Positions 20,703 through 56,788 of a DNA stretch of 64,000 nt are shown in pieces. The notes under the pieces are model-generated. The model was not told where the DNA came from, ran no database searches, and worked only from the letters and a program-made list of their open reading frames with translations. The position numbers and the translations under genes were made by a program. Each line of letters opens with the position of its first letter. The first letter of the stretch is position 1. The DNA lies in contig OZ076409.1 of NCBI GenBank assembly GCA_964187785.1, forward strand, positions 2,232,001 through 2,296,000, written 5' to 3'. The stretch is from Amphiscolops sp. MND2022 (lineage: Eukaryota).

Positions 20703-20805
20703 CTGCATCCAGACAACACAACACAACTCACACACTCACTCTTCTCACTTAACATTACAAATATTCAAATATTGAAACAATGTCTAAAACAATATTGAAA
20801 CAAAG

Positions 20806-21130
20806 GGATCTCTTTCACTATACCCCCCCCCCTACAGCAAAAGGGGGGACAGAGTGAAACGCTATTAAATGCATGTAGTGCACATTCTAATAGCGCAGAT
20901 CTGCTCTTATCTAACAACGCTTCTGATTGGCTGAGGGGGGATTTTGATAAAAAGAACCAATAAAAAGTGTCGTTAGTTATGACGACATCAATTGATTGAC
21001 AGAATAGCATGAGAGATTAACCAATAGGAGATAAATATAAATGAGCCACAAACATTTATTTTCTCTAGGGGGGACATAGTGTAATACACGAGTGATATAG
21101 GGGGGGGGGGGGGCATAGTGAAAGAGATCC
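20806..21130. mobile_element. Merlin-like MITE
   Basis: TIR GGATCTCTTTCACTAT; 8-bp TSD AAACAAAG; second copy 62915-63228. Confidence 0.8.
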
Positions 21131-21552
21131 AAACAAAGTAAATCTCCCAATTCCAGAGAAATTTATTTTCAACGTTTTTCGAATTTTGCAAAAGGAGTTC
21201 AAACTTAGGAAGTTTCACTAAAAGCAACTAGATTCCGGACTTTAGGCTTTGCTACTCGAATAAATACAAAGATTACGCATTCCAGTGAAGAAGAATTTTA
21301 GCAGTAAGTCATAATCGCATTTGAAAAGTAATCACTCCTTTGAATGTCACTAAGCTTTCAGCGAACTATCAACTAACAACCAACTCAACTCTTGCTCGCT
21401 TGCTGTCAATAATATCGAATTGACAAGCTGCAATTGGCACTGACAATAGACCAGCTTTTCGCGCGACTGAAAAAAATAACCTCATTGTGTTTTCAATAGT
21501 ATTTCAGCTCACTCGGTAGAGGTGTACCTGACATCAAGTCCGGTCTGGTAAC

Positions 21553-24500
21553 CAATGTATTATGCGCTTTAAGCTTTAAGCATTTTTTACATAAGCGCAA
21601 TAAGCGGGAAAAAACTAAATTTTCTGTCGCTTATTGTTACATGTATTAAAAATGCATTAAAATGCGTATTACGTGTTTTAATTGCGAGGGAATTCACACG
21701 TATGCAGTTTTAAATGCTGTTTACATGTATTAAAATAGGCCCCTCCGGGGCTCAGTACTATTTCTGCTTTAATCTTTATTTTTTTAAAACAAAAAATCAT
21801 CAATAAAAGAATCATATCTGGAATACCAATACACTCCTGTTTAATCATTACTTAGAGCACAATTAATCACTGTACAAGTTTACACCGCCTTTAATTCTTC
21901 TCGGACTAAAGAAAATATAACTAAGCGTAGACGAAGTTTCGCATTCGCATTTGAATGCAGGCGAAGCTCTCAACGAACGAATAATTAACACTCATTCGCT
22001 TCATCTCAATGACGTCAGCATACGAATGGATAATTACCACTCGCTCGTTCTATCGCACTAGAATTGAATTGTTGTCGGCAGCTTTCCCACGCTTACACTC
22101 ACTGCCGAACAAAATATCTGAATTATTCAGTAGGACGAAATTTGACGACTGAAAAAAAAGGACCAACTTTGAGGTTACAATAACATTCCTGCTAAAGCAG
22201 AAATATTAAAAATGCGAGGGAAATTTCATTCCAACATACATGTATTCTCTCAACTGCATCATAAAATGTGAACAAGCGACCTAACTTATTACAGTCACGA
22301 GCATATTCTATTTCGTCCACTCTCATGAAGCTGCGCAATACAAAATAACACTTTGACACATTAATACAGATTTGAACCCGCCGATTTCGAATTTCACCTT
22401 CATTCTTCATTGCAATAAAAATTAATCACAATTTTTGAAATAAAAATTCTTTTTGCAGCCTTATTTTATAGATTTTAAGGTATCCGCTCTTTGAATTCTT
22501 CGGATTATTCATGAAAATTACTAAGATTGAATTCAATAATTACTTTTAGCATAGATTATTATAATTATAAATTATTGCGATTATTTTTTCAGATTCGCAA
22601 TGGTTCTCGATTATGCGAAATATTGTATTAATTAATTAATTGTATTAACTGGCTCGAACCTTGAAACAACAGCGCCACCGTTCACAAAGCAAGGAAAAAT
22701 AACGGAATCAGTGATTGATAAGTTGATTGGGCGGGGTGGTTTACCTGTTACTCTGACTACCAAGAAATGGTTTATTGATTTTATGGCAGATGTGGAGCTT
22801 CGTTATTCATGCCCCACGTATTCGAACATTATTCAAAACGTGCAGAAAAAAAGTGATGCTATTCGTGCTAATTTGGTGGAAAACATAACATTACAGTGCA
22901 CAGGAAGCTTTTTGCTGCTTTTCGTGGAATCCGGGACACGAAAATTGAGAAAAGTCGTGGAATCCAGGACAAAATTTCTCTTTGATGTTAAGCGTGTCTT
23001 GGATTCCACGACAGTGCGTGTCCTGGATTCCACGCCAATACTGCTGCAATAATGACACTTTTGCCGCTGCTCTCTGATTGGTCCGCTGATTTTGAGTAAT
23101 CATTTTAAATTAATTCTAAAATTTATATTAAGTTTATATCAAAGGAAATTGTTTCGATTGACACGAAAAATCCAAGAAGTACGAATAGAGATACTCGTGA
23201 CTGGTACCAAAAATGAAGCATGTCATCAAATAATGGCAGATTGTGATGTTTCTCCAAGAATTGCTACACGGGCGTACTGCGGCTGATTTGAACCTGGTAA
23301 TTCGGAATAAGATGGATCTACTGGGAGTTCGGAAAGTTCCCTACTCTTTTTCGACGGACAACTGCAGTGTTATAAAAAAGCATTTCAGAATATTGTGAAA
23401 AATGATTTTCTCCCTTTTTTTTCATGAAAATTCGGAGGAAGAAGATGTGGATTTTTGTGAGGACTGTTTTTTTGTTGAACATCAATTTGATATACCACCC
23501 CGGAATTTGTTGAATGGCTTGGTTGTGCAGCGCATATTCTACAGCTTTGCGTGGGCGATGGACTGAAACAAGTGGGCGACTACATGAGGTTGAATTCTGC
23601 TGTTGTTAAGTGCTCCAAAATTGCTCAGCATGATCACAGGGCCAGAAAATTTCATGCAAGACTTAATCGACGGAGAAAAATAAAGAACGATGTTCGCTGG
23701 AACTCAACAGTGACCATGATAAATTCAGTTTTGAATAATTTTGACACTATTAAAACGGCGTTGATGGAAGAACAGCTTTTGGAATTTGTGATTTCAAATG
23801 AAGAAAAAACTTTTGACAAATTTGGCAGACCTTATGTTTTTCTTTGATGCAACAAACGTACTCCAAAAAGACGGTGTAGTAACTATCAAAAAGGTAATAC
23901 CATTGCTTATACTTTTAGAACGCGGTCTAGTGTCAATGCCTCGAACGCAGCCTTCATTAAATGCTGTAAAGGAGGCCTTATTGAACAGTATTCGCAAACG
24001 ATTCAATTCTATGAAAACATCTGAAATTCATATCATAGCTACTATGCTTGATCCCTGTGCCAAACTGACATTCTGTGGAAATTTGAGTACACATTTTTAT
24101 TTTGATATCACGCGATGTCGGGACATTTTCATACGTAAACTTCGCGACTGTGATCTGACAAATACCAATATAGTGGATGATGCACCTATAAGCATTCCAT
24201 CTGGGTCCAGAAAAGGGCTTTTTGATTTTGCTGATACAATCCCCCAGCCTGTTTCTACATTAGAGAGTCGAGCCACTGCATATTTGTCGTCAGAGACGGT
24301 ACCTGCCTGCAATGTGGTCGAGTTTTGGAAAAATTATCCAGCACCTTTTCAAAAGATGTGCAGCCAAATTTTGGGATCTTCGCCCGACACAAGCACCGTT
24401 GAGCGACTGTTTTGAAGTGCTGGTGGCTTACTTACTAAGATGCGAAATCAGCTCAAATCAGACACTTTGGAAAATTTGCTTCTGTTGAATGTTTTAAAAT

Positions 24501-24624
24501 GAATTAAAAATTAAATTTTTTCGTCATTATTTTTTGTCATAAGCGACACCGCTTAAGCGATAAGCGGCATTTCAATAAACGCAATAAGCGACAAGAGCGT
24601 CCTTCATAAGCGCATAATACACTG
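21553..24624 (+). mobile_element. Decayed hAT transposon with transposase pseudogene (~22700-24500)
   Basis: TIR CA(A/G)TGTATTATGCGCTT; 8-bp TSD CTGGTAAC (21545-21552, 24625-24632); motifs TDN, WLGCAAHILQL, DVRWNST, ATMLDP, STVERLF*SAG. Confidence 0.92.
21733..22207. mobile_element. HINE family B copy nested in the hAT
   Basis: aaataggcccctccggggc stem-loop + subTIR tatttctgcttta; other end hairpin attcctgctaaagcagaaatatt. Confidence 0.7.
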
Positions 24625-24966
24625 CTGGTAACCGGCCGGACTTCGGAAAAATGTCTGGTCGAAAAAAATATCTGAGCAAATGATCGCATATCTCAGATTA
24701 AAACCTGGAATTCGACAATCATGCAGTTATTGCCACTTTTGAACATTCATTTCTCAACGACAGTCAAAAGTTTCGGCATTTTGAAGTTGAAGAAAAATGT
24801 AAAATAATATTTTCTCACTTTTTGGAGCAAACTATTAATTTGCTTTTGGTCATATTCATTGCCCAATTCTGAAAACAGTCTTTCATCGCTTACAGTCCAG
24901 GATAATGTCCGGTCTGAATCCGGCCTAATTTTGTACTGAGGTGCACCTTCAACTCAGAAATATCAA

Positions 24967-25236
24967 ACAAGACGCCCGCTCAGCACCGGGATATTTTCCG
25001 CTAAAATGTAACGCATCAGCACGGGTTCGAACCCAAGACCTCGTGTCTGTCAGGCAGACGCACTACATACTGCGCCGCCATGATGACTAGAATCTATTAA
25101 CTAAATGAAGTAACAAGTAACTAAAATAGTCAAGTGGATGGAGACAGAGGAGATTTGGCAGAATTTGGAAAAAGACGCAACACAGATTATGATTTTCCTC
25201 CCCCATTCACAAATAAATTTGTGGGGCGGAAAATAA
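24967..25236. mobile_element. HINE family D copy containing a tRNA-derived segment (~25020-25082, minus)
   Basis: acaagacgcccgc...atattttccgc start; end hairpin ttttcctcccca...tggggcggaaaa; B-box GGTTCGAACCC. Confidence 0.6.
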
Positions 25237-25299
25237 AAAGTGGGAGTTATCTTAAATTGCATGAATTATATTGCATGAAATTTTATTGCAATTGTATTA

Positions 25300-25595
25300 C
25301 ACCGTTTCTAATTTAGATTTGATGTGTTTACCTTATGCAACTGCTGCTTGATTCTGCCTTTCATTCTATTCAAGTAAATTGTAATTTTATTCAATCAAAG
25401 TGACAATTAAGAATGAGTCTGTTTTAATTGGCTGCCGAGTTTTGTTAGCATTCTTGTTTATTCAACTAAAATTAGCTTTCGTTCATCTGAATTGGAATTG
25501 TGATAGCATTGATTTATTTTGATTGTGATTGGTGGAATTAAGAAGCACGGCGTTCAACTAAGTTGAAATTTTGTTCATCTAAATTAGAAACGGTG
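25300..25595. mobile_element. MITE with TA flanks
   Basis: TIR CACCGTTTCTAATTTAGAT, TA on both sides. Confidence 0.75.
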
Positions 25596-25612
25596 TAAAT
25601 GACTTTGTTATA

Positions 25613-25780
25613 CAGTCAAACTCGGATAAAAGAAACTCATTGGGCGGTGAGAAAAGGGTTTCTTTTATCCATAGTTTCTTTTATCAGTTGTCTATTAACG
25701 TAGAAAGTTTGACTTGCATAAAATCGGAGGAGTGAAAACGTTTCTTATATCCGACTGTTTCTTTTATCCGAGTTCGACTG
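25613..25780. mobile_element. Tc1/pogo-type MITE
   Basis: TIR CAGTC(A/G)AACTCGGATAAAAGAAAC, TA TSD. Confidence 0.85.
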
Positions 25781-25835
25781 TATGACGAGTGAGTGAGTGA
25801 GTGATAGATAGTAGGTGTGAGTGGTGGTGGCGTGC

Positions 25836-26002: not shown

Positions 26003-26814
26003 CTACACCACTCATCATGCTACTACTCATGCTCAAAATCTAATTATTTCTGTTTTCATTAATGTTGCTTGCTGGCCTGTTTCAGACAATTACATTCACT
26101 GAGATTTAAGACATGATGAAGACATAATGAATGATCAAAACTTCCTTTTTGATCAAATTAGGTAAGGTAATCAAGAAAAATTGGTAGGTCGCGGGTTGGA
26201 TCCCAGATAGCGACCAATTTTTTTTTCAATTATAACCCTATAACTAGCATCGCGGTACATATTTGCACCACTTAAGATCTGCGAACTTCTGAAGGCACCA
26301 GCCCACCGTATGGTAAAGAAACTCTTGAATAAGATTTTCAGACAAAACAAGATAGAATTGCACACATTTTCACGGATTGTTGACTTGATGTCTCCAAAAT
26401 CAGAAAAACGGGACCAAAAACTCTATAATACTGGGGACAAGATTATGTCAAAGGGGCCCTAGCAAATTTTGAAACAAGCTGAACTGCAGCCAGAGACACC
26501 ACGCGTGCAAAGTTTTCGTGGAAAGTCCGGAGCCAGTGCAGCGAAGCGGGCCCACAGCCCAGCAGTTTAAAAATTGATTTGAAAGCCCCGATGCTCCTCT
26601 TTCGAACGCTGTATAAATCGTTTGTCGAACTTGAATAGTTTTGGAGATATTGCGGTTTAAAGTTTGAGCACCAGATTTTTGGATGCATCCAGAAAATTCC
26701 ACCTCCATTCCGGGTTAAAGAGTTTTCGTCATTATTATAGATTTCATTCATTTTTGCAACGAATTATATTTTTTTAATGATTGATAAAAAATTCGAGAAG
26801 CAAGATGAGCGTTC

Positions 26815-26979
26815 CTGAAGTGGACGGTGATGTAGAAGAGGTTGTTGAGGATGCAATCGGTGGCCAGAGTACAGCCCCAGCCGGTGGCCCAGCTGAGAGG
26901 GGTCAAGTGGAGGGTGGGGTCACGGCAACATCCAGAGGACCCACTGGTCGCAGCTACAGTGCCGCCCCGAGGCATGAAA
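26815..26979 (-). CDS. fry: furry exon (FMPRGG...GWGCTLATDCILNNLFYITVHF-S), probable GA donor
   Basis: Acceptor ccaccag; GWG...LNNL.Y.T motif; phase-2 end at CAG|GAACGC. Confidence 0.82.
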
Positions 26980-27431
26980 CTGGTGGAAACACGGTCACAC
27001 AGACATTATCAAACACGACCGACTAACCAACTTTACGTCATTCATGCGAAATGAAAATAACAGTTTTTACAGAACAAAATTGCCACCAATTCTAGAGAAT
27101 AGTTAGAAAGCATCTTTTATAAAGATAGTCTTGAAAGTTGAGAAAAAAAACTTCACGCATAGAAACATCGCAGGCATAGCTAAGTTTGTAATCCCTAGAC
27201 ATTCTTCTGTCACGCTTGGATCTCCGAATCTCTTCACTGACATTTCCCCCGTGTCAGGTGCTAACTTTGAATTTTGTCAACACGTGGGATTCCATTTAGA
27301 TAATTGTTACAAAGACTGGATCAATCTGGCTATGATGCTTGGATTTTCAATTTTAAAAAAACCTCAAAAAAGAATCTCAATTGATGAAATCTGTAAACAA
27401 AAAGAATTCACTGGTAAGTTTTATACCTTTT

Positions 27432-27655
27432 CGGGTTGGGGACGATTCGTCCCAAGCGACAATTTGTCCCAAAGTTGAAAAAGCGACAATTCGTCCCAAG
27501 AGGCAGTTCCTCACATTTAGAAAAGGCGATTTTTCAAATGTATTAATTGACAATTAAATTGAGGACGAATTGTCACCTTTTGAAAAATGGGACGAAGACC
27601 CTTGGGATGAATTGTCACTTTTTGGAATTTGAGACGAATCGTCGCTTGGGACACC
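27432..27655. repeat. Foldback-like inverted repeat of gcgacaatt(t/c)gtccc units
   Basis: Tandem units on the left, inverted units on the right; TSD not resolved. Confidence 0.55.
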
Positions 27656-27741
27656 AAAAGTGACACTTTAAATCTAAAGGTCGCAACCACAGCCAAACGA
27701 GGTGGTGTGAAAAGGAGCGAGTTGGTATTGAATGATAATGC

Positions 27742-39927: not shown

Positions 39928-41980
39928 TGTAAGAAAATTTAGCTACTTGGGTCGGAGAGAAATCCCAAGGCTCAACTCTTAACAGAAAGGTTTTGATTTT
40001 GGTGAGTAAGTTTCGTTCTTGCTTCTGCTCATAGGACTAGCTTGACACTAGTTTCTCTCCAAATTGCTCTATCGGCTCTATATTCGCAATGAGACTGTAG
40101 GTTAGAATGATCGAGTTAAGAAATTGATATAAAATCACAGAACACGATGAAAACAATCTTCCAATTGATTTCTCAGCGAATATCTATATATCACGATCCA
40201 GCCAACTGAATCAAACAATCGTCAAGTCCCGGACTTGTACAATTTCTGTCACTGACTCCCGGAGTTAACGACGACCAGTTACTCCAGCTAGTTCGAATCT
40301 CTTGCCCCCGCCCTGAAGCTCAACTGAATTCTAGCTCTCTAACTCGGTTGTCGAGAAGCGCGAGTGTTAATCCGAAGAAGTATCTTGTCTCCGCGAGACT
40401 CAACTTGCTCCCAGCCTTCTAACTCGGTTCTGCCTATTCCATTATGTTCTAATTCCGCCTCAATTATATTTGTTCGTCGCACGTGTTTCTGGTCATCTCA
40501 TCTTGACTTTCTATCATACTTGACATTTTCGTTACATACGGGGCGTTGGCGTCCTAAATCTGCATGAGTCTACCTTCACGTTTACTATTCCTTTTATGGC
40601 ATGGTGAACGCGTCTAATTATACTTCGACTAAACATTCTTTGCCACCAACGATAAATAATTCACGTCTTGTCCGAAGTCCACATTTCAATAATAATTCAA
40701 GTCGCCCGAGATATTTCTAATATCGAGACGATTGCTCAATAACCTTCAACTACATGGTTTACATGTTCTCTACGTGTAAGGGGTACTTTTTCGTCCTTTT
40801 AGGCGCAATGCATCGCGAATCGTTCCGCCTGACTGAAATGCATAAATTATCACTTAAAGATACTGATTTACATGTTTTATCGTAAGTTTCTCTATATGTT
40901 CCGGGGTCACATCTAAAATGACCTTGAGATCCGTCAATGACCTTGAAGTTATTTGCCATCATCCAAAGTTGCTACATGCCAATTTATATCGTCCTAGGGT
41001 TAATGGTTCCCGAGTTACACGCTATGCGTATCGTTTGTTTACTTAAGGCGGCTACCCCCGCATGGGTTATAAATACGGTTTCATTCACGTTATAAATCGA
41101 CTACATTCATCATTCCGGTTCGTTTGATATATTACAAGCCAAGGTCAAATGTCATTTATCGGTCGGGCCCGCGCGTCCGGTCCCGCGTGCCTTAAACAAA
41201 CATTACTCCGCGCGTGGTGGACCGATCAATGTATCTTTCATGTAAATTACTTAGGGTTACTAGGTGAACATCTTGGGTAAGTTTCATGATCTTCGGGTCA
41301 TCCGGTGGCTATTTACACAACGTTCCGGGTTTATTTACTTAGGGTCCGTGCTCCTCTTACACGCGTCGTGGGTGTCCGAAAATGTGCGCAAACGGCTTAA
41401 TATCATATGGGCTATCGATCCTATATATAATACGACTTATCCCGTGCTTGGCCGACGAGTTCGTAGGGGGGTCGACCTAGGTCACTTCCGGTGCTAATAG
41501 CCCGGGACTGGGGGTTCCCGGCTCGGTTTCGTTTTTATGGATCAGTAGCATAACAGCTCAGGTATACGTGTGCCAAATTTCAAGTCCCTACGATAAATAG
41601 TCTTTGAGAAAAACCGTTTGGGGGGGGGTTTAAAGATTTGTGATGTTTGGTTTTTCATAGTGTATCTTAGAATATTTTCGCTTGGAAGTGGGACTTAGTA
41701 AAATTCGCTCCAAGTGATCAATTTTGACTTAGTCGATTCGAATCATTTCATCGCTGACGTCACTCGCTAACTTATTAATTTTACCTAAGACGTTTCGTTT
41801 ACTAAGTAAATACCTAATTTGCCAAATTAGCCATATCGATGCACGCTATTGTCAGCCTTTTCAGCTGTGTTCAGTGTTCCGACGGTTTAAAAACGAGATT
41901 AACATAGTTCCATCTATGTTTTAAGCTTCGCGCAAAAGGGATGGGATCTTTCTAAAACACCAAAATCTAAAATTTCCACA
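39928..41980 (-). repeat. 3' LTR
   Basis: Near-identical to 45481-47533; adjacent to PPT. Confidence 0.95.
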
Positions 41981-41992
41981 CTCTTCCCTTCT
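41981..41992 (-). promoter_or_regulatory. Polypurine tract AGAAGGGAAGAG
   Basis: All-purine 12-mer directly abutting the 3' LTR on the minus strand. Confidence 0.85.
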
Positions 41993-42316
41993 GGACTTTT
42001 ATTCTCCCGAATAAACTTAACGGTATTATCGTTGGCTGAATCGTGGGATCTAGGTTAAATATATACCATAGGGTAGATGAGGGGGGGGTTGGTTGAGGAA
42101 TCCATAGCACCGCTGGCTACTCATCTACAATAATGATGAACTAGTATAACATCCAATAAATTAAAAAAAATTAAAGTAGGCAATTTAAACATCATAGAAA
42201 CGGGGTCTATATATAAAACAACTATGACAGTCATGTTGGACAACTCGTCCTCGACCAATTTTTCAGAGCTACTTTCCGTTCATTGATGCACTAGGGGGGG
42301 TCGCAAGAAGTCGCTC

Positions 42317-42699
42317 ATGTATTCGATCAAACTTATGACATCCTCAATTTCTGGATACGTGAAAGCAATGATGCATGAGAATATCCTAATACGAATGCAA
42401 TGGGCTTCCCTCTACTATCGGAGGGTTATCTCTACACAGAACATGAGTGTCGACGGAGGTTACGACATAAGAATATTACTGGAAGGAGGGGGGCAGCTTT
42501 TGCTAGAATATCTGTCGCCTGGCTGGGTCGAGTTTACCCTATTTTTGCTGAATCTCCCTATTCCAGGGGAAAGGGTCGAGGGTCAGACGTTTCGACTCCG
42601 ATTGGCCCGAGGAACGCTTCAAAGAGCCTTCAAAAAGACATCGCCTCCGGACTTCTTATCCTGAATCCATTTGTACAAAAACTATCGTTTTCATCCTAA
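42317..42699 (+). CDS. Possible antisense ORF(s) in the LTR element's 3' internal region; unknown product
   Basis: Two overlapping open frames (42317-42664, 115 aa; 42400-42699, 99 aa); TATA-like TATATATAAAA at ~42208; no recognised domain. Confidence 0.3.
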
Positions 42700-43239
42700 T
42701 TATTTTCATCCTAATTTCATCCCTAATAACCTACTAAAATAATTTATTGCATCTTTTCTTTTTGGCAATGCGCAAAGGACGAGTTCAACTGATCCTAATT
42801 TGAATATTCGAGGATAAGTTTGGATTGTTTGGGGCTAGTTATCGCGCCTAACAAAACAACAAGGAGAGTAGCACTAGGGTAGGGGTCGCGAGAGGGGGGT
42901 GTGTGTGTATGTTCATAGGCGCTTTCATAAATGTAATCTGTTAGGGTCAGGGTTGGGTCTTGATACATTGAAGTGAATATAAACACAAGAATTGGGCTCC
43001 TCGATGTTCGGCCTCTGAAAAGTTACTCATCAAAAAAAAATTACATACAATTTCATCGTCTTGCAAAAAAAACTACGGTCGGCGGAACCTCGATTTGCCT
43101 GGACAACAAGAAGTATACTGACTTCACGAAAAAGAATAATTTAAAACCTTGATGATAAAAAAAATCAGTTTTGGCGAAATTGATACTTAGGTGTTCGGTG
43201 AGTGGAGTTTCACATACATCGCAGCATCGTATCGCCTCG

Positions 43240-44487
43240 TTAGACACTGCATCGATTTACAGACTTCCACCTTGATCTCTTCCTTCGGCTGCTCCAGCGT
43301 CGGGTCCCTTCCGGTCTCGGAAGCATTGGCAGCGGGGGCATCACCATTTCGTCGGGTTTCCATCTGCCATGCTTTCGGTGGGTCGGCCAGCACAGCCCAC
43401 GTAAGCCCATCTGCTGTCGCTCATGTTTCCATCTACCATGCTTTCGGTGGGATACCCACAATCGCCTTCTGTGGCAGAGGGTTGGGCGCTGCTGGGTTAC
43501 TTCGACGGGAATAAGATTGTTTGGTCGCTCAAAACGCCCAGTCAAGTGAGAGCGTTTTGATCCGCACCTCCCCTCTGCTTCCATCGTAGCTTCTGAGCTG
43601 CTGGCCCCATTGTCCTCATTGATACTTTCGGCTGACACATCGGGGTTCGCACGGAGTTCATTTCCTTCTATTTTGGCAATCAACTCGATTCGTTCGTACC
43701 CGACTGGGAACGCAATTTCGAGTTCCAGTTCTCGCAACAGAGCATCAATCATCGCTTCATCGTCCTCAGACAATTCATGCGGTTTGTCAAGCTCTTCCAG
43801 TTCTTTCAACAGCTCATCAATCATTTCATCATCTCGGTCACCCTGAGCAAATGTTGAAATTCGAGTCTCATTAGCTTTTATCCGCGCCTGTGGTTCGATC
43901 TTCTCCTCACTCAATTGCCTTTCTCGTTGCGAAAGCTTGGCCGTAGTGATTCCTACTTGACTTGGACCAATTGATTCGAAACCCTCAGTCGCTGGAGTAT
44001 ACGTCGTCACAGCTACCGGATGCACATGCTTCCCTTCTGGATTAATGCCACCCAGTTGGGACCATGGAACAATAGGGTTTTCGAGGCTAGCAGCAGCTCC
44101 ATTGTCAGTTGTGACGGCAGCGGTGTAAATCTCTCCGAAAGAGTTCACATGCTTTGGTGCACCTCCCAAAGCGCTGTCAAATTCTTGCCCGCTCGTCATC
44201 ATTTTCTCACGCACTGTTCGGAGTTGGTCCGCCTGCATCGCAATGATACCAGGCTGCTGGGCACTGCTGTTGCTGGGCAGTACTTCTCGGGCCACTCCAA
44301 TTGTTTCTACTTTCATCTGTTCGCTTCGTGGAATCTCACTGGTACATTCTTGGCGAACCTTTTGTGTAGCTATCCTTGACGCTGCCGCTTTCACAATGTC
44401 TTCTGCTTGCTGTTGCGATAACGTAGCTTCTGGTGCGGCCGGGAAAACTTTCTCTTGTGACGGTCTCCCGGCCCTCACAAGTTTAAA
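43240..44487 (-). CDS. ORF2 of the LTR element, reached by -1 frameshift from gag; unknown acidic/low-complexity protein, not Pol
   Basis: Open for >400 codons in the -1 frame (KLVRAGRPSQEK...); no D(T/S)G, YxDD or integrase motifs seen. Confidence 0.65.
   Translation of the reverse strand, partial: FKLVRAGRPSQEKVFPAAPEATLSQQQAEDIVKAAASRIATQKVRQECTSEIPRSEQMKVETIGVAREVLPSNSSAQQPGIIAMQADQLRTVREKMMTSGQEFDSALGGAPKHVNSFGEIYTAAVTTDNGAAASLENPIVPWSQLGGINPEGKHVHPVAVTTYTPATEGFESIGPSQVGITTAKLSQRERQLSEEKIEPQARIKANETRISTFAQGDRDDEMIDELLKELEELDKPHELSEDDEAMIDALLRELELEIAFPVGYERIELIAKIEGNELRANPDVSAESINEDNGASSSEATMEAEGRCGSKRSHLTGRFERPNNLIPVEVTQQRPTLCHRRRLWVSHRKHGRWKHERQQMGLRGLCWPTHRKHGRWKPDEMVMPPLPMLPRPEGTRRWSSRRKRSRWKSVNRCSV
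44437..44487 (-). promoter_or_regulatory. -1 programmed ribosomal frameshift signal
   Basis: In-frame slippery heptamer T TTA AAC (44487-44481), 7-nt spacer, 10-bp stem GGCCGGGAGA/TTTCCCGGCC. Confidence 0.8.
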
Positions 44488-45347
44488 GGATTCCTGATGA
44501 GTCGACAAACTTCTGCAGGGTGACCATTTTCGCTGCACACATCGCATCGACGGACACTGACCACTGTAGAAACAAATTGGCCCACCATATTCGTCAGACT
44601 ACTCAATGCCCTAGTCATTTCATCCAACTGCTGCTTCATCTCCGTCACTGCAGTTTGATCTTCAGCCGCAACAGCTGACTCCTGTGCAAGCCTGGCGTAA
44701 GCAACTCGTCTGCTCGGCCTAGTTCTCGCTGAGTTGGCAATAGCTTCCAACTCCACCGCTCTATCCACAGTACCAACAAATCCACGCGTTCGTTCTCGTA
44801 GCAAAACTTCTAGCAGGTCTGAATCTGATAGTCCATCTAAAAAACGTTCACGGAACAATTCGTCTCGCTGATCTGCTTCCTGATGACCAAAGACCAGCAG
44901 TCCCAAATTGCGAACGCGACGTGCAAACTCCCTCAAGGGTTCGCTCTCCTTCTGAACCAAACATTTGAATTCGTTGCGCCCTGCTCTATCGTTTCTTGTG
45001 ACTCCCATCAATTGGTCCAAGTGCTCAAAGAGTGCTCGTAAAGTAGGTGCCCGTCGATTCACTACCTGAGTCTTCAGTTCCCGGGGTGCTGCCTGAAACT
45101 CTTCTAATGCATGTCCACTCAAACACACTGGCAGTGCACCGATAGCCTCTGGGTCTGTCCACCTATTCGCTTCGGCCACTGCGATAAAGTGGGTGTTCCA
45201 TTGAACCCAATCGGCAAACGAACTCGACGGAAACCTATCCGGTCGAATGGTTCCGCAATTGAAGATTCGATTCTGATTGCCATTCACTGCTCTTCCAAAG
45301 GCCTGCATCGCAAACTCAAGCAGCTCACGTTTTGCGTCTTGATCCAT
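44475..45347 (-). CDS. gag: Gag protein (290 aa) with CCHC zinc knuckle
   Basis: Capsid-like FADWVQW..HF..VAEANRW and Q..SEPLREFARRV (MHR-like); CDVCSENGHPAEVC knuckle; intact frame just after PBS. Confidence 0.9.
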   Translation of the reverse strand: MDQDAKRELLEFAMQAFGRAVNGNQNRIFNCGTIRPDRFPSSSFADWVQWNTHFIAVAEANRWTDPEAIGALPVCLSGHALEEFQAAPRELKTQVVNRRAPTLRALFEHLDQLMGVTRNDRAGRNEFKCLVQKESEPLREFARRVRNLGLLVFGHQEADQRDELFRERFLDGLSDSDLLEVLLRERTRGFVGTVDRAVELEAIANSARTRPSRRVAYARLAQESAVAAEDQTAVTEMKQQLDEMTRALSSLTNMVGQFVSTVVSVRRCDVCSENGHPAEVCRLIRNPLNL

Positions 45348-45460
45348 AATGAAATCCTTGTATAATATCCAACTCTACGAATATACATTCAAGTTGGAAT
45401 CCAGAACTCGAAAAAAAATGTTGTAAAACGTAACCAGTAAAAGAAAGCAAAGCAAAGCAA

Positions 45461-45479
45461 AGCCCACCCAGGAGCGCCA
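45461..45479 (-). promoter_or_regulatory. Primer-binding site TGGCGCTCCTGGGTGGGCT (tRNA-Asn-like)
   Basis: Starts with TGG 1 nt after the 5' LTR; complement AGCCCACCCAGGAGCGCCA resembles the 3' end of animal tRNA-Asn(GUU). Confidence 0.8.
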
Positions 45480-45480
45480 C

Positions 45481-47533
45481 TGTAAGAAAATTTAGCTACT
45501 TGGGTCGGAGAGAAATCCCAAGGCTCAACTCTTAACAGAAAGGTTTTGATTTTGGTGAGTAAGTTTCGTTCTTGCTTCTGCTCATAGGACTAGCTTGACA
45601 CTAGTTTCTCTCCAAATTGCTCTATCGGCTCTATATTCGCAATGAGACTGTAGGTTAGAATGATCGAGTTAAGAAATTGATATAAAATCACAGAACACGA
45701 TGAAAACAATCTTCCAATTGATTTCTCAGCGAATAACTATATATCACGATCCAGCCAACTGAATCAAACAATCGTCAAGTCCCGGACTTGTACAATTTCT
45801 GTCACTGACTCCCGGAGTTAACGACGACCAGTTACTCCAGCTAGTTCGAATCTCTTGCCCCCGCCCTGAAGCTCAACTGAATTCTAGCTCTCTAACTCGG
45901 TTGTCGAGAAGCGCGAGTGTTAATCCGAAGAAGTATCTTGTCTCCGCGAGACTCAACTTGCTCCCAGCCTTCTAACTCGGTTCTGCCTATTCCATTATGT
46001 TCTAATTCCGCCTCAATTATATTTGTTCGTCGCACGTGTTTCTGGTCATCTCATCTTGACTTTCTATCATACTTGACATTTTCGTTACATACGGGGCGTC
46101 GGCGTCCTAAATCTGCATGAGTCTACCTTCACGTTTACTATTCCTTTTATGGCATGGTGAACGCGTCTAATTATACTTCGACTAAACATTCTTTGCCAAC
46201 AACGATAAAAAATTCACGTCTTGTCCGAAGTCCACATTTCAATAATAATTCAAGTCGCCCGAGATATTTCTAATATCGAGACGATTGCTCAATAACCTTC
46301 AACTACATGGTTTACATGTTCTCTACGTGTAAGGGGTACTTTTTCGTCCTTTTGGGCGCAATGCATCGCGAATCGTTCCGCCTGACTGAAATGCATAAAT
46401 TATCACTTAAAGATACTGATTTACATGTTTTATCGTAAGTTTCTCTATATGTTCCGGGGTCACATCTAAAATGACCTTGAGATCCGTCAATGACCTTGAA
46501 GTTATTTGCCATCATCCAAAGTTGCTACATGCCAATTTATATCGTCCTAGGGTTAATGGTTCCCGAGTTACACGCTATGCGTATCGTTTGTTTACTTAAG
46601 GCGGCTACCCCCGCATGGGTTATAAATACGGTTTCATTCAGGTTATAAATCGACTACATTCATCATTCCGGTTCGTTTGATATATTACAAGCCAAGGTCA
46701 AATGTCATTTATCGGTCGGGCCCGCGCGTCCGGTCCCGCGTGCCTTAAACAAACATTACTCCGCGCGTGGTGGACCGATCAATGTATCTTTCATGTATAT
46801 TACTTAGGGTTGTTAGGTGAACATCTTGGGTAAGTTTCATGATCTTCGGGTCATCCGGTGGCTATTTACACAACGTTCCGGGTTTATTTACTTAGGGTCC
46901 GTGCTCCTCTTACACGCGTCGTGGGTGTCCGAAAATGTGCGCAAACGGCTTAATATCATATGGGCTATCGATCCTATATATAATACGACTTATCCCGTGC
47001 TTGGCCGACGAGTTCGTAGGGGGGTCGACCTAGGTCACTTCCGGTGCTAATAGCCCGGGACTGGGGGTTCCCGGCTCGGTTTCGTTTTTATGGATCAGTA
47101 GCATAACAGCTCAGGTATACGTGTGCCAAATTTCAAGTCCCTACGATAAATAGTCTTTGAGAAAAACCGTTTGGGGGGGGGTTTAAAGATTTGTGATGTT
47201 TGGTTTTTCATAGTGTATCTTAGAATATTTTCGCTTGGAAGTGGGACTTAGTAAAATTCGCTCCAAGTGATCAATTTTGACTTAGTCGATTCGAATCATT
47301 TCATCGCTGACGTCACTCGCTAACTTATTAATGTTACCTAAGACGTTTCGTTTACTAAGTAAATACCTAATTTGCCAAATTAGCCATATCGATGCACGCT
47401 ATTGTCAGCCTTTTCAGCTGTGTTCAGTGTTCCGACGGTTTAAAAACGAGATTAACATAGTTCCATCTATGTTTTAAGCTTCGCGCAAAAGGGATGGGAT
47501 CTTTCTAAAACACCAAAATCTAAAATTTCCACA
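45481..47533 (-). repeat. 5' LTR
   Basis: Near-identical to 39928-41980; adjacent to PBS. Confidence 0.95.
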
Positions 47534-53401: not shown

Positions 53402-53680
53402 CTAAAAAGGAAACAAAGGAATTAGTCTGTCGTCTATTGAAGTCAAGTCTGTCTCTGAGACAAAACTTGATAGCAACACCTCAAACGTTAGACCATTTGT
53501 TTGAAAACAAAACGCTTCGTGTAAAGATTTTTCTGCCAGCTGCAGACTGCAAAGCCTCATTGCAAAATCAATGACGGTTCCATGGAAGAATGGGAAAACT
53601 TCAGCACCAAAGGGCTGATCTAGAAAACAAAACAACAAAATGCATGACATCAAGATCATCACAAATGAATTGGTGATAAA

Positions 53681-54192
53681 TAGTGTTGTTAGATAAAAAT
53701 CAATTGATAAATATCAATGATAAAAATCAAGATAATTATCAAGCTCAGTTTTCATTATCACTGATTAAAATCAAATTCGACGCTTGCAGGCCTGATCGGG
53801 TCTAGCTCAATTAGGCGATCGGTCAGCTAACCGATTGATAAATTGGAAGACTATCAGCTTTTTTATAAATTCATTAGTTTATTCAACTTCGCTCACGGTG
53901 GTATGGATTATAGCCGAACGACATTAAAGACGAATGGTATTTTTGAGTTTTCAATCATTACCTTACGTAATCTTCCAACTGAGCATCGAAGAGTGTGTTG
54001 ACAAAGCGGGAAAACTTTGTTTCAAGATTCTGAATAAATAACGAATTTGCTATTTTGTCACTGGCTTACACGTAATTCAATTGTTTCTGCCCAACCCTAT
54101 TTTTATCGAATTTTTTTGATAATTATCCGATTCTCAAAAAAAATCGAATATTTTTGATTTTTTAAATAAAATCAAGATTTTTAACAACACTA
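53681..54192. mobile_element. hAT-type MITE
   Basis: TIR TAGTGTTGTTA; 8-bp TSD GTGATAAA (53673-53680, 54193-54200). Confidence 0.82.
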
Positions 54193-54535
54193 GTGATAAA
54201 CTACCATCATAAACTATGTTTATTGGCATGTCATGAACTACCACGGCCTTGCCTTTCCTCGTGTGCAATAGTCGCAAGAGATGGATTCACTTCTAACTGA
54301 CTACGAGTGTATAGCACAGAGCTTCGAATGAGAACGCAGCTAATTTTGCACGTTCTGTGGCAATCGCGTCCTTTCTCCGAGATCTTAAGGGCTGGCTACC
54401 CGTGACATTAAATTGTTTGAGGCTAGAGGTCCTGGGCATGTATTACAAGAGAAGACCAATGGATTGAAAGTGTTCTGTCTTATTTTCGTGCAGTATCAAT
54501 TAAAAAGACGGCAAATTAAAAAAGGCAAAAAGAAA

Positions 54536-54772
54536 ACAAGACGCCCGCGGACCAGCGGGATATTTTCCGCCCCAAATCATTTGAGCAACAAAATCGTTTT
54601 AAGTCCAAAAATCTTTACAAATACATATCGCATGGAACTAAAATTATGTCAGTTGAATTCTGTGAATGTACTTCTTCATATTACGTAAACAATAATTCTT
54701 GGCAAATTATGTAAAAAAACCCGTTTGATTTAAATATTTTCCTTTCCCATATGGAATATGGGCGGAAAATAA
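54536..54772. mobile_element. HINE family D copy
   Basis: acaagacgcccgc...tattttccgccc; end hairpin ...cccatatggaatatgggcggaaaa. Confidence 0.6.
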
Positions 54773-56211
54773 AAAACTATTTCCAATGTCTCAAAAGTGT
54801 ATTGAGCGTTTTGTTTGTTTTCAAGTCAACCAAGTTCCTGATTTGCTTCAAATTTTGAGATTGAGATTATGAAAAGATTCCAAAACGTAATTCAGAACAG
54901 TGTATTGTCGTATACTGAGTTCCTCTTATAACATGTAATCGTATTGTCGAACGTTTCGTATATCGTATATTCGTATAATTGGCCCTCTTATACCGTATAA
55001 AGGCATGAAACATAATTTTTGGATCATTTTTCTATCGGAAAGTGTTGATTACCTCAGGAAAGGTGATTGCAATAGTCCCCTTTCCGTATTCCATGTAGCC
55101 TATTTCCATTTTAGGATGCATTTCATTTGAAATTCATAACAAAATTTTCATATTTTCCAAAAACTTCCTTGCCCGTTACGGCAAAATCGACGCAAAACGA
55201 CTGAAAAACGATTCTCCGTATAACTCGTATAATAATTGGCATCTCCGTATAACATGTAATTCGTATAGAAAATAGTGGGTTTCGTATAATTTTTCGTATA
55301 ATCGTATATCTTGTACAATAGACTGATTCAGAAGTATAAAAAACTTTAGAACACACCTCGTGATTTTGTTCGAATTTTCTGTTTGATCTTTTTGCAGCCT
55401 CAAGACATGTTTCTCGCCTAAAGAGGCCGCCTTTTTCAGACATCTACCGAAATTTTTTTTTCTAATTTGGTCGAATTTTCGCCGAACTTTTCTTGAATCA
55501 ATTTTGATATTCTCTGTCTAAAAATTGATCTTTAACTCATCGACGTTTCTGTCAACAGACACTACACTAGTGAAAGGTAAAAAACACAAAAACATCTAGT
55601 TTTGGCAAGGAATTGTCTGAGCGTGTATTTTGGGGTATGACTTTTGATCTAGCGAATTAGCGACCGTGCATGAATTGTTCAGCGATTTCATCAGCGATTC
55701 AAACAAATGGTAACTAATGGAATGTCCGAAATCAAATTTTTCTCAGATTATACTCGGATATTCAAAATGAACTTCAAAAATCCAACTCTTACCACTGTAA
55801 AACCTCGACAGTATAAAAAATTCCAGTCTGTTTGGGCTCAGAGATTATTTAAGCATGTCCACAACTTTAGCAGCTGCAGAACTATTTAGCGATCTTCGAG
55901 CGGGCATATATTTGACATGAAAATGTACCGGGACTTCAATTTTAGTTTCTTTTCCTTTTTAGTTTTCAAATTGATTCTTGAAAGATGCTCCAAGTTAGTA
56001 AACAGCTAATAGTTTGGAGAAAAACCTTTCTGTAGAGAAGAAGCGATTTTTGAATTAGCGTTTTAACGATTAGCGGAAAAACTTAGCGATGTCAAAACCG
56101 TGCCGACAATGTACTTGAATTAACTAAGTAGGGTAAACATCATTCTAACTCAGGAAATGAATCTCATTTCACTTTGTTCATTAATAGTAGAAAGAAAAGT
56201 ATCATAGATCG

Positions 56212-56712
56212 AAAAATGGGCGCCTCCGGGGCACACTAGTCTTCCATTAATAATAGAATCATATCTGGAATACAAATACTTTTGTGTTTAATCATTATTT
56301 AGCGCATAATTAATCACTGTACCAATTTATACCGCCTTTAAATCTCGGACTAAAGCAAATATAACTACTAAGCGTAGACGAAGTTTCGCATTCGCATTTG
56401 AATGCAGGCGAAGCTCTCGGCCAATGAACAATTAACACTCATTCGCTTGATCTCAATTACTCGGCGTACAAAAAAAAATAACGAACATTCGCTCGCTTCA
56501 TCTCAATGACGTCAGCCTACGAATGCATAATTACCACTCGCTCGCTCCATCGCACGAAGATTGAAATGTCGTCGGCAGCTTGAGAAAATTAATTCTCACG
56601 CTTACACTCACTGCCGAACAAAACATCTGAATTTTTCAGTGAATACAAACAAAAATTTTACTGGAAAAAAGTAAAACTTTCAGATTTCCATAGTATTCCT
56701 GCTTTGCAGAAT
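56212..56712. mobile_element. HINE family B copy
   Basis: Colinear with 21733-22207 and 59165-59680. Confidence 0.72.
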
Positions 56713-56788
56713 AATAATAATAATAATAATGCTGATAGAGTGGGTTTCCAGCTTTTGCAAGAGGGGGGGGGGCGAAAGTAGTACTTTC

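Follow-up and report, generated by a model that had tools for sequence, protein, structure and literature searches.

The window, by which we mean the whole 64,000-nucleotide stretch of DNA analysed (on contig C1 of a 1.07-Gb assembly), covers the middle of a FRY (furry) gene on the minus strand. The first-pass annotation had called the gene FRY-like; an exon search that matched named furry proteins, and alignments to these orthologs that are collinear with the gene over ~180 kb, bear this out. None of 17 exons, scanned singly against Pfam, matched an FRY family. Our hand-built model carries 49 junctions in a single open frame of 3364 amino acids with no stop; it reaches neither the 5' nor the 3' end of the gene and is possibly one exon short after the last GC donor. 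One FRY intron (window 6927 leftwards into L012) is 40.6 kb long, and its position is absent from the listed metagenome loci covering it. Another, of 11 kb, contains an LTR-type element (window 40184-46099) whose two terminal repeats, of 363 bases each, are identical and which carries gag-like frames; this is a very young LTR insertion. The part of the gene that concerns us here is laid out as follows, a slash within a sequence marking a boundary between exon and intron.

26815..26979, minus strand: upstream FRY exon, ending ...ITVHF-AG (frame and ortholog alignment)
26003..26814, minus strand: GA-AG intron of 812 nt, phase 2 (sequence and ortholog alignment)
26809..26817, minus strand: GA donor CAG/GAACGC, matching U1 at -3, -2, -1, +1, +3 and +5; 6.6 bits without +1/+2
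26233..26790, minus strand: dispersed repeat in the middle of the intron, with 80-92% identical copies on many contigs, touching neither splice site
26003..26005, minus strand: TAG acceptor, with the fewest pyrimidines (7/20) and the most upstream AGs (5) of the 32 FRY acceptors scored
25836..26002, minus strand: downstream FRY exon (S)CDHGDSLKKVW...VAK-G, with a GC donor at its end (frame and junction scoring)

Around the junction the minus strand reads ATC ACC GTC CAC TTC AG/GAACGCTCATC ... GATGAGTGGTGTAG/T TGT GAC CAC (26003/26002). Splicing of CAG/GAACGC to GGTGTAG/T gives the peptide LNNLFYITVHFSCDHGDSLKKVW, which is gap-free over the junction when aligned with most FRY orthologs (e.g. 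P0125, P0127, P0132, P0134, P0140, P0144, P0145). The first-pass annotation had proposed this donor, this acceptor (ggtgtag), phase 2 and T-TGT-GAC as the start of the next exon, and had written the peptide correctly; sequence and junction scoring uphold all of these. Its argument from the spacing of FRY proteins also holds, for the gap-free alignments restore the ortholog spacing exactly. It had further suggested aligning the alternative junction peptides with FRY orthologs. How does the GA junction fare in such a comparison? Each possible donor was paired with each AG in a range of ~60 nt, and the pairs were scored against reference proteins; of 22, the 16 reaching across the junction were used. 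At 112.2 the GA junction ranks first. The best GT options reach 93.3, 91.1 and 87.0, while the best GC option, at 100.5, requires a GAG acceptor and four additional residues. The junction region is single-copy in the genome.

We built a donor matrix from 92 GT donors of the same genome; with +1 and +2 ignored, the GA donor at 26814 scores at least as high as 80 of the 92. The acceptor at 26003 is the weakest among the 32 scored in FRY. Instead of simple runs of pyrimidines, acceptor tracts in FRY and PRP8 (e.g. L071-L080) have sequences rich in T and G (TTGTTG, TGTG).

Does this donor stand alone in its gene? Among the 49 introns modelled, 39 begin with GT, seven with GC, two with GA and one with GG, and an exon-final AG precedes every non-GT donor (10/10). 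Four of these introns are the following.

53402..56788, minus strand: second GA-AG intron, CAG/GAAAGT, with the highest donor score of all, 9.0 bits; alignment by itself does not settle the junction
26980..27741, minus strand: adjacent GC-AG intron, CAG/GCATTA, whose ends are complementary; junction not covered by any ortholog
20703..25835, minus strand: adjacent GC-AG intron, AAG/GCACGC; position in 0/27 metagenome loci listed
L022 ~8191 to 7640 (window-equivalent 92191-91640), minus strand: GG-AG intron (junction scoring and second record)

In the alignments the non-GT junction comes out on top for the GG donor, for the GA donor at 26814 and for two GC donors. Three GC donors beat the best GT option but are not ranked first in ortholog scoring, and for GA 56788, GC 27741 and the last GC donor the alignment is not decisive; GA 56788 (CCAG/GAAAGT) lies in a variable region of the protein. 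The best supported of FRY's non-GT donors is the GG. Its junction is top-scoring (158 versus 136), and the spliced peptide LLAISHT is also read across the site in the related proteins P0123 and P0249, as the site is in short FRY proteins that span it. A second assembly record, P0122, is not identical to the first and differs in its intron flanks; there the unspliced frame reads IRDHQ through the GG site, and this requires G at +2. Three phase-2 non-GT donors (window-equivalent 92191, 27741 and -53489) share the form CAG/G(G or C)AT(C or T)A without the +5 G, and are possibly a class of their own.

If FRY holds such donors, what do other genes of this animal hold? PRP8 has 31 GT and 2 GC donors in 33 introns. 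GLDC, MUT and glycogen phosphorylase have 24 GT and 1 GC in 25 (GLDC over its first half, two donors being read by eye). CAD, OGDH, VARS, VARS2 and DHTKD1 have 43 donors readable as GT, the far end of the intron being not placed for 8 and one further VARS2 junction being dropped. In all, the 101 introns outside FRY contain 3 GC and no GA or GG donors; they come from 'eight genes', a loose label for eight gene families plus paralogs (nine if OGDH/DHTKD1 and VARS/VARS2 are counted separately), with no donors from PGI or MTR and with an aconitase match left out as too distant. PGI (L128 707-2374) and the methionine synthase MTR (L129 950-4738) are intronless, against 33 introns in PRP8 and at least 49 in FRY; intron loss is strongly uneven across genes. 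Transcript-sized Logan contigs are available from a species whose MTR protein is 96% identical, so that relatives probably offer RNA data.

GA and GG donors make up less than 0.02% of human introns. Here they amount to 3 of 150 (95% interval 0.4-5.7%), all in FRY, a figure that may be an undercount since GT was preferred where references were weak. The contrast between FRY (3/49) and the other genes (0/101) has p = 0.03, a value inflated because FRY was picked for its GA donors; with the two GA donors left out, non-GT donors still number 8/47 in FRY against 3/101 elsewhere (p = 0.005). The absence of GA and GG from the 101 introns outside FRY means that a genome-wide relaxed spliceosome is not supported. 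An exon ending in AG (-2/-1) combined with A at +3 is found at 10 of 13 non-GT donors, including all three GA/GG donors, as against 28 of 92 GT donors (p = 0.002). At the acceptor there is no such variety: AG closes every one of the 139 introns scored.

The spliceosomal components surveyed (U1, U6, U1C and PRP8) look largely ordinary. A model search gave 23 U1 matches (42 candidates scored) and a structured pattern gave 18; none is changed at the base facing +2, and all 18 intact copies keep A7 there. U6 has its ACAGAGA intact, and the first 40 residues of U1C are ordinary by eye. Of 1116 conserved columns, PRP8 departs at 16 from what at least 95% of references have. One of these is Gly for Ser at human position 1524 (yeast 1596 by offset; L077 4092-4391), where 65/67 references have Ser and 1/67 has Gly. 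The residue lies two positions from Gln1594 of the alpha-finger, which in the available text of the structural work docks the acceptor (10.1101/212811); we treat it as a lead only. The U1 genes themselves are diverse. Three of them (L041, L047, L048) have A for T at base 6 and would pair with GTT donors; 21 of the 92 GT donors have T at +3. Three copies of three subtypes (L035, L042, L049) have in common one foreign 5' flank, joined to U1 at an identical base in each, an arrangement that insertion of a U1-targeting mobile element might leave; Dada-like transposons are elements of this kind. As to other small RNAs, a search of the genome gave no let-7 match (one exact 16-mer does not continue as let-7), and a miR-124 hairpin is present. 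In a PRP8 tree the gene falls among animals, with no closer placement. The host is a bilaterian and may be an acoel worm, a tentative assignment that draws on these markers and on similar repeats.

The two ends of the GA-AG intron are partly complementary.

26796..26811, minus strand: imperfect inverted repeat, 5' arm at +4 to +19 (duplex and repeat scoring)
26009..26024, minus strand: 3' arm (-22 to -7), purine-rich, with extra AGs and a possible branch motif

The repeat, which we noticed after the fact, matches at 12 of 14 positions (+6..+19 against -9..-22; shuffle p = 0.007 and 0.001) and is not flush with the intron ends. The RNA duplex between the ends has p = 0.014. With 25 or 35 bases taken from each end it is the most stable of 104 introns, with 45 bases the fourth, and folding of the entire intron yields the stem in its minimum-energy and its centroid structure alike; 5 of 103 other 5' ends pair equally well with the G-rich 3' end of this intron. 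Across 139 introns, the top four inverted-repeat scores belong to the FRY GG intron, two FRY GC introns and the FRY GA intron at 26814. A score of at least 10, a threshold set after seeing the data, is reached by 4/13 non-GT and 2/126 GT introns (p = 0.0006; rank test p = 0.01). In the GG intron, 12 perfect bases run from the exon's last G and recur in inverted form 21-32 nt before the acceptor. Shuffling leaves three of the four significant, GC 25835 being largely compositional (p = 0.11 and 0.04). The GA intron at 56788 has no complementary ends and gave no inverted-repeat signal in the shuffle test. A search of the genome for further copies of the GA-intron and GG-intron ends found none, the inner repeats alone being multi-copy, so that no living introner family is supported.

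What might these ends signify? Because the four best end-to-end inverted repeats of 139 introns all lie in non-GT FRY introns, we entertain a broader but speculative reading, on the whole rather unlikely: that a further animal lineage, possibly the acoel worms, has young introns whose GA, GG or GC donors might be rescued by pairing of the 5' end with the branch and acceptor region. Such introns would be fossils of transposon-born introns, removed by a standard spliceosome and clustered in particular genes. A stem over +4 to +11 would compete with U1 and U6 binding, which counts against the explanation of the GA intron that we favour below.

Is the position of the GA-AG intron an old one? We scanned metagenomes with ten ortholog segments and obtained at least 27 loci, several of them near-duplicates.

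26819..26820, minus strand: ancestral phase-0 intron position (ITAK/F), empty here, 5 nt upstream of the GA donor (listed metagenome loci)

Nineteen of the 27 listed loci have a phase-0 intron after ITAK, 5 nt upstream of the position of the GA donor (11 complete introns, 1 with its acceptor visible, 7 with GT directly after the codon). Seven are intronless there, one is ambiguous, and none of the 27 has an intron at the GA site. It follows that the intron was gained or slid, and its position was probably gained or shifted in the lineage of this animal. Nearby in FRY, two well-supported ancestral positions are kept (both GT) and most others are missing; the unshared positions include that of the GC intron at 25835. 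The frame of one relative reads through three FRY intron sites of this gene, and that of another breaks off where the gene here is continuous. The missing ancestral introns, the unshared ones, the read-through in relatives and the intronless PGI and MTR together indicate a lineage that turns introns over.

Would a conventional pair of splice sites serve as well as the GA donor? The nearest candidate is this one.

26824..26825, minus strand: rival GT donor ACC/GTCCAC, with TAG 26020 or GAG 26011, rejected (alignment and donor score)

The first-pass annotation held that this donor needs a GAG acceptor. It does not: the TAG at 26020, within an AG-rich stretch, is in frame and completes a fully canonical GT-AG intron, in phase 0 like the ancestral intron, whose product YIT-HDEWCSCDH could be the sole or an alternative form. 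This splice, however, inserts two residues relative to all orthologs shown except P0154, and it scores 91.1 against the 112.2 of the GA junction. It also forfeits the V-x-F match to ITVKF/ITVQF, although, with p = 0.05, V-H-F downstream of the rival GT stands at the border of what chance could produce. Among the competing sites, at -5.7, -8.8 and -2.4 bits, the two GT rivals (-5.7, which is this donor, and -8.8) fall below all 92 GT donors, and we consider the canonical pair extremely improbable. The next phase-2 GT (26760) does add 18 codons, as had been estimated. Somewhat more weight attaches to the view, still an unlikely one, that the true base at 26813 is T and the donor CAG/GTACGC, the A having come from faulty assembly or from a rare defective allele carried by the individual sequenced. 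The base is covered by one record only, our search for an independent record having found none. The GA donor differs by a single base from the locally common CAG/GTACGC type and otherwise resembles a normal strong donor, an appearance that would be expected of an error or a recent mutation, and elsewhere GA and GG donors are missing from all 101 introns. On the other hand, one gene holds three GA/GG and seven GC donors, each after AG, the GG donor is also read in a second record, and the introns with non-GT donors tend to be those at unshared positions and with ends that pair, a pattern that errors would not make. It had been argued earlier that two independent GA donors make a single sequencing error unlikely. 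The second GA donor does exist, at 56788, and the GG read in P0122 strengthens the argument, but it leaves some room for an error or rare allele at 26813 itself.

A dedicated U1 variant, of the kind proposed for Eurytemora affinis in the available text of PMC7072748, or the minor (U12) spliceosome is very unlikely to be what removes the intron. The genome does have three U1 5' variants, but in neither set of U1 matches (23 by model, 18 by pattern) is the base facing +2 altered. U12-type donors have an ATCCTT motif after the first two bases; the donor GAACGCTC lacks it. A search of the whole genome for U12 snRNA gave no match, which is a weak test. A rival of another kind concerns origin, and as a variant of the main explanation it makes the same splicing claim: the GA donor is real and the intron reached its place by a 5-nt slide, which we regard as possible though not favoured. 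In a slide the ancestral donor after codon H would have become the exonic TTCAG, and the old exon start the intron end TGTAG, with F-S kept in the protein. Both sequences fit by eye, the ancestral intron lies 5 nt away and is absent here, and near intron pairs often arise via sliding in the available text of PMC2891723. Yet TTCAG and TGTAG are equally demanded by the protein and the local acceptor style, and a distance of 5, not being a multiple of 3, affords no stepwise path. Relatives have intron-free FRY stretches, and with most nearby ancestral introns missing and several unshared ones present, one near coincidence is expected about 1 time in 3 (a rough estimate). We lean, tentatively and at something like three to two, towards an old insertion at an AG site. 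Two further ideas were set aside. The first, a tandem exon duplication, fails because the read-through RNAH, which resembles the ortholog GNEH, does no better than a random intron (p = 0.19). The second has the target site supplying a copy that became the donor: the following exon opens with the donor's two bases in 5/13 non-GT and 19/92 GT introns, and not in the GA intron.

We conclude that the 812-nt GA-AG intron is probably real and its GA used as a splice donor; on the genomic sequence we put this at about 80%. It is likely to be constitutive and removed by the major (U2-type) spliceosome, with GA replacing GT. The first-pass annotation was right as to the GA junction, the phase and the gene, and overlooked the canonical rival, the one GG donor and the seven GC donors, the offset of 5 nt and the complementary ends. 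How could such a donor be used? An ordinary U1 would bind via the exonic CAG, +1, +3 and +5, the mismatch at +2 being tolerated. In the available structural account, G+1 pairs with the last G of the acceptor and U+2 with A51 of U6 (10.1101/212811); with G+1 retained, the former pairing would be kept and only the latter lost. Human donors with +2T>A/G can yield full-length transcript, according to the available text of PMC12805630. Less firmly, the intron may have originated long ago through insertion at an AG site, or by the 5-nt slide, and its complementary ends may be a relic of insertion or a stem that joins a weak donor to a weak acceptor.

The GA and GG donors of the copepod E. affinis have an obligate exon-final AG and an A at +3 as their signature (PMC5714493). 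In the available accounts (PMC5714493, PMC7072748) they resemble the FRY donor in this signature, in being needed for a full-length protein and in lying in a long multi-exon gene; they also occupy intron positions not found in other animals (here 0/27 listed loci at the GA site) and coexist with a canonical U1 5' end. There, however, GA and GG account for ~10-12% of introns in many genes with RNA support, whereas here they are 3/150, confined to FRY and read from DNA. Here, too, GC outnumbers GA, and the complementary intron ends are absent from the E. affinis description (PMC5714493). The FRY GA donor would function in the manner of the Eurytemora donors, but such donors do not reach here the frequency that they have across that genome. 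In Oikopleura dioica, with GA-AG introns (PMC7072748), and in Fritillaria, with non-canonical introns (PMC13326754), a conserved core spliceosome handles non-GT donors, as here; as far as the available text goes, those introns are genome-wide and the acceptors are altered too, whereas here the acceptors are AG in 139/139 and the housekeeping genes almost all GT.

Introners are transposon-derived introns that have inverted ends and, in some families, GC or GA donors (PMC9860276, available text). The GA intron is like them in its new position, in the GC and GA donors of its gene, in a donor at an AG target and perhaps in its terminal inverted repeats. Introners, however, form multi-copy families (same source), while the ends of the GA and GG introns are single-copy here and the repeat arms lie inside the ends. 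At the target site only AG is common to both junctions of the GA intron, the same as a plain AG site, with no duplication beyond AG. The ends being single-copy, the GA intron is not classed as an introner. The GA donors of FGFR, as cited in the available text of PMC5714493, show GA to be usable by a normal spliceosome, and leaky human +2T variants (PMC12805630) join them in suggesting that GA, GG or GC with an exonic AG is usable. Those are partial or alternative events, as far as the available text goes, whereas the FRY GA donor would have to be constitutive. The near intron pairs of Drosophila, like the GA site, set an ancient and a new position <32 nt apart; in the available text, the 9/9 pairs assigned to sliding differ by multiples of 3 nt and one 5-nt pair is of unknown origin, the GA site being offset by 5 nt (PMC2891723).

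In the literature searched, GA and GG donors are common in animals only in Eurytemora and the larvacean tunicates, and supplements of PMC7072748, PMC9860276 and PMC5714493 (File S1) may list further species; the same search, which included few subscription papers, gave no report of such donors in FRY or in acoels. New here are the host lineage, the concentration of such donors in a single gene, the displacement of the intron by 5 nt from an ancestral one and the complementary ends. Gene finders limited to GT and GC will break FRY here, and similar genes. The clustering in a single gene points to intron history or cis-structure and not to a changed U1. Ten non-GT donors in one conserved gene, beside housekeeping genes that are nearly canonical, provide an internal control that is missing from Eurytemora and the larvaceans.
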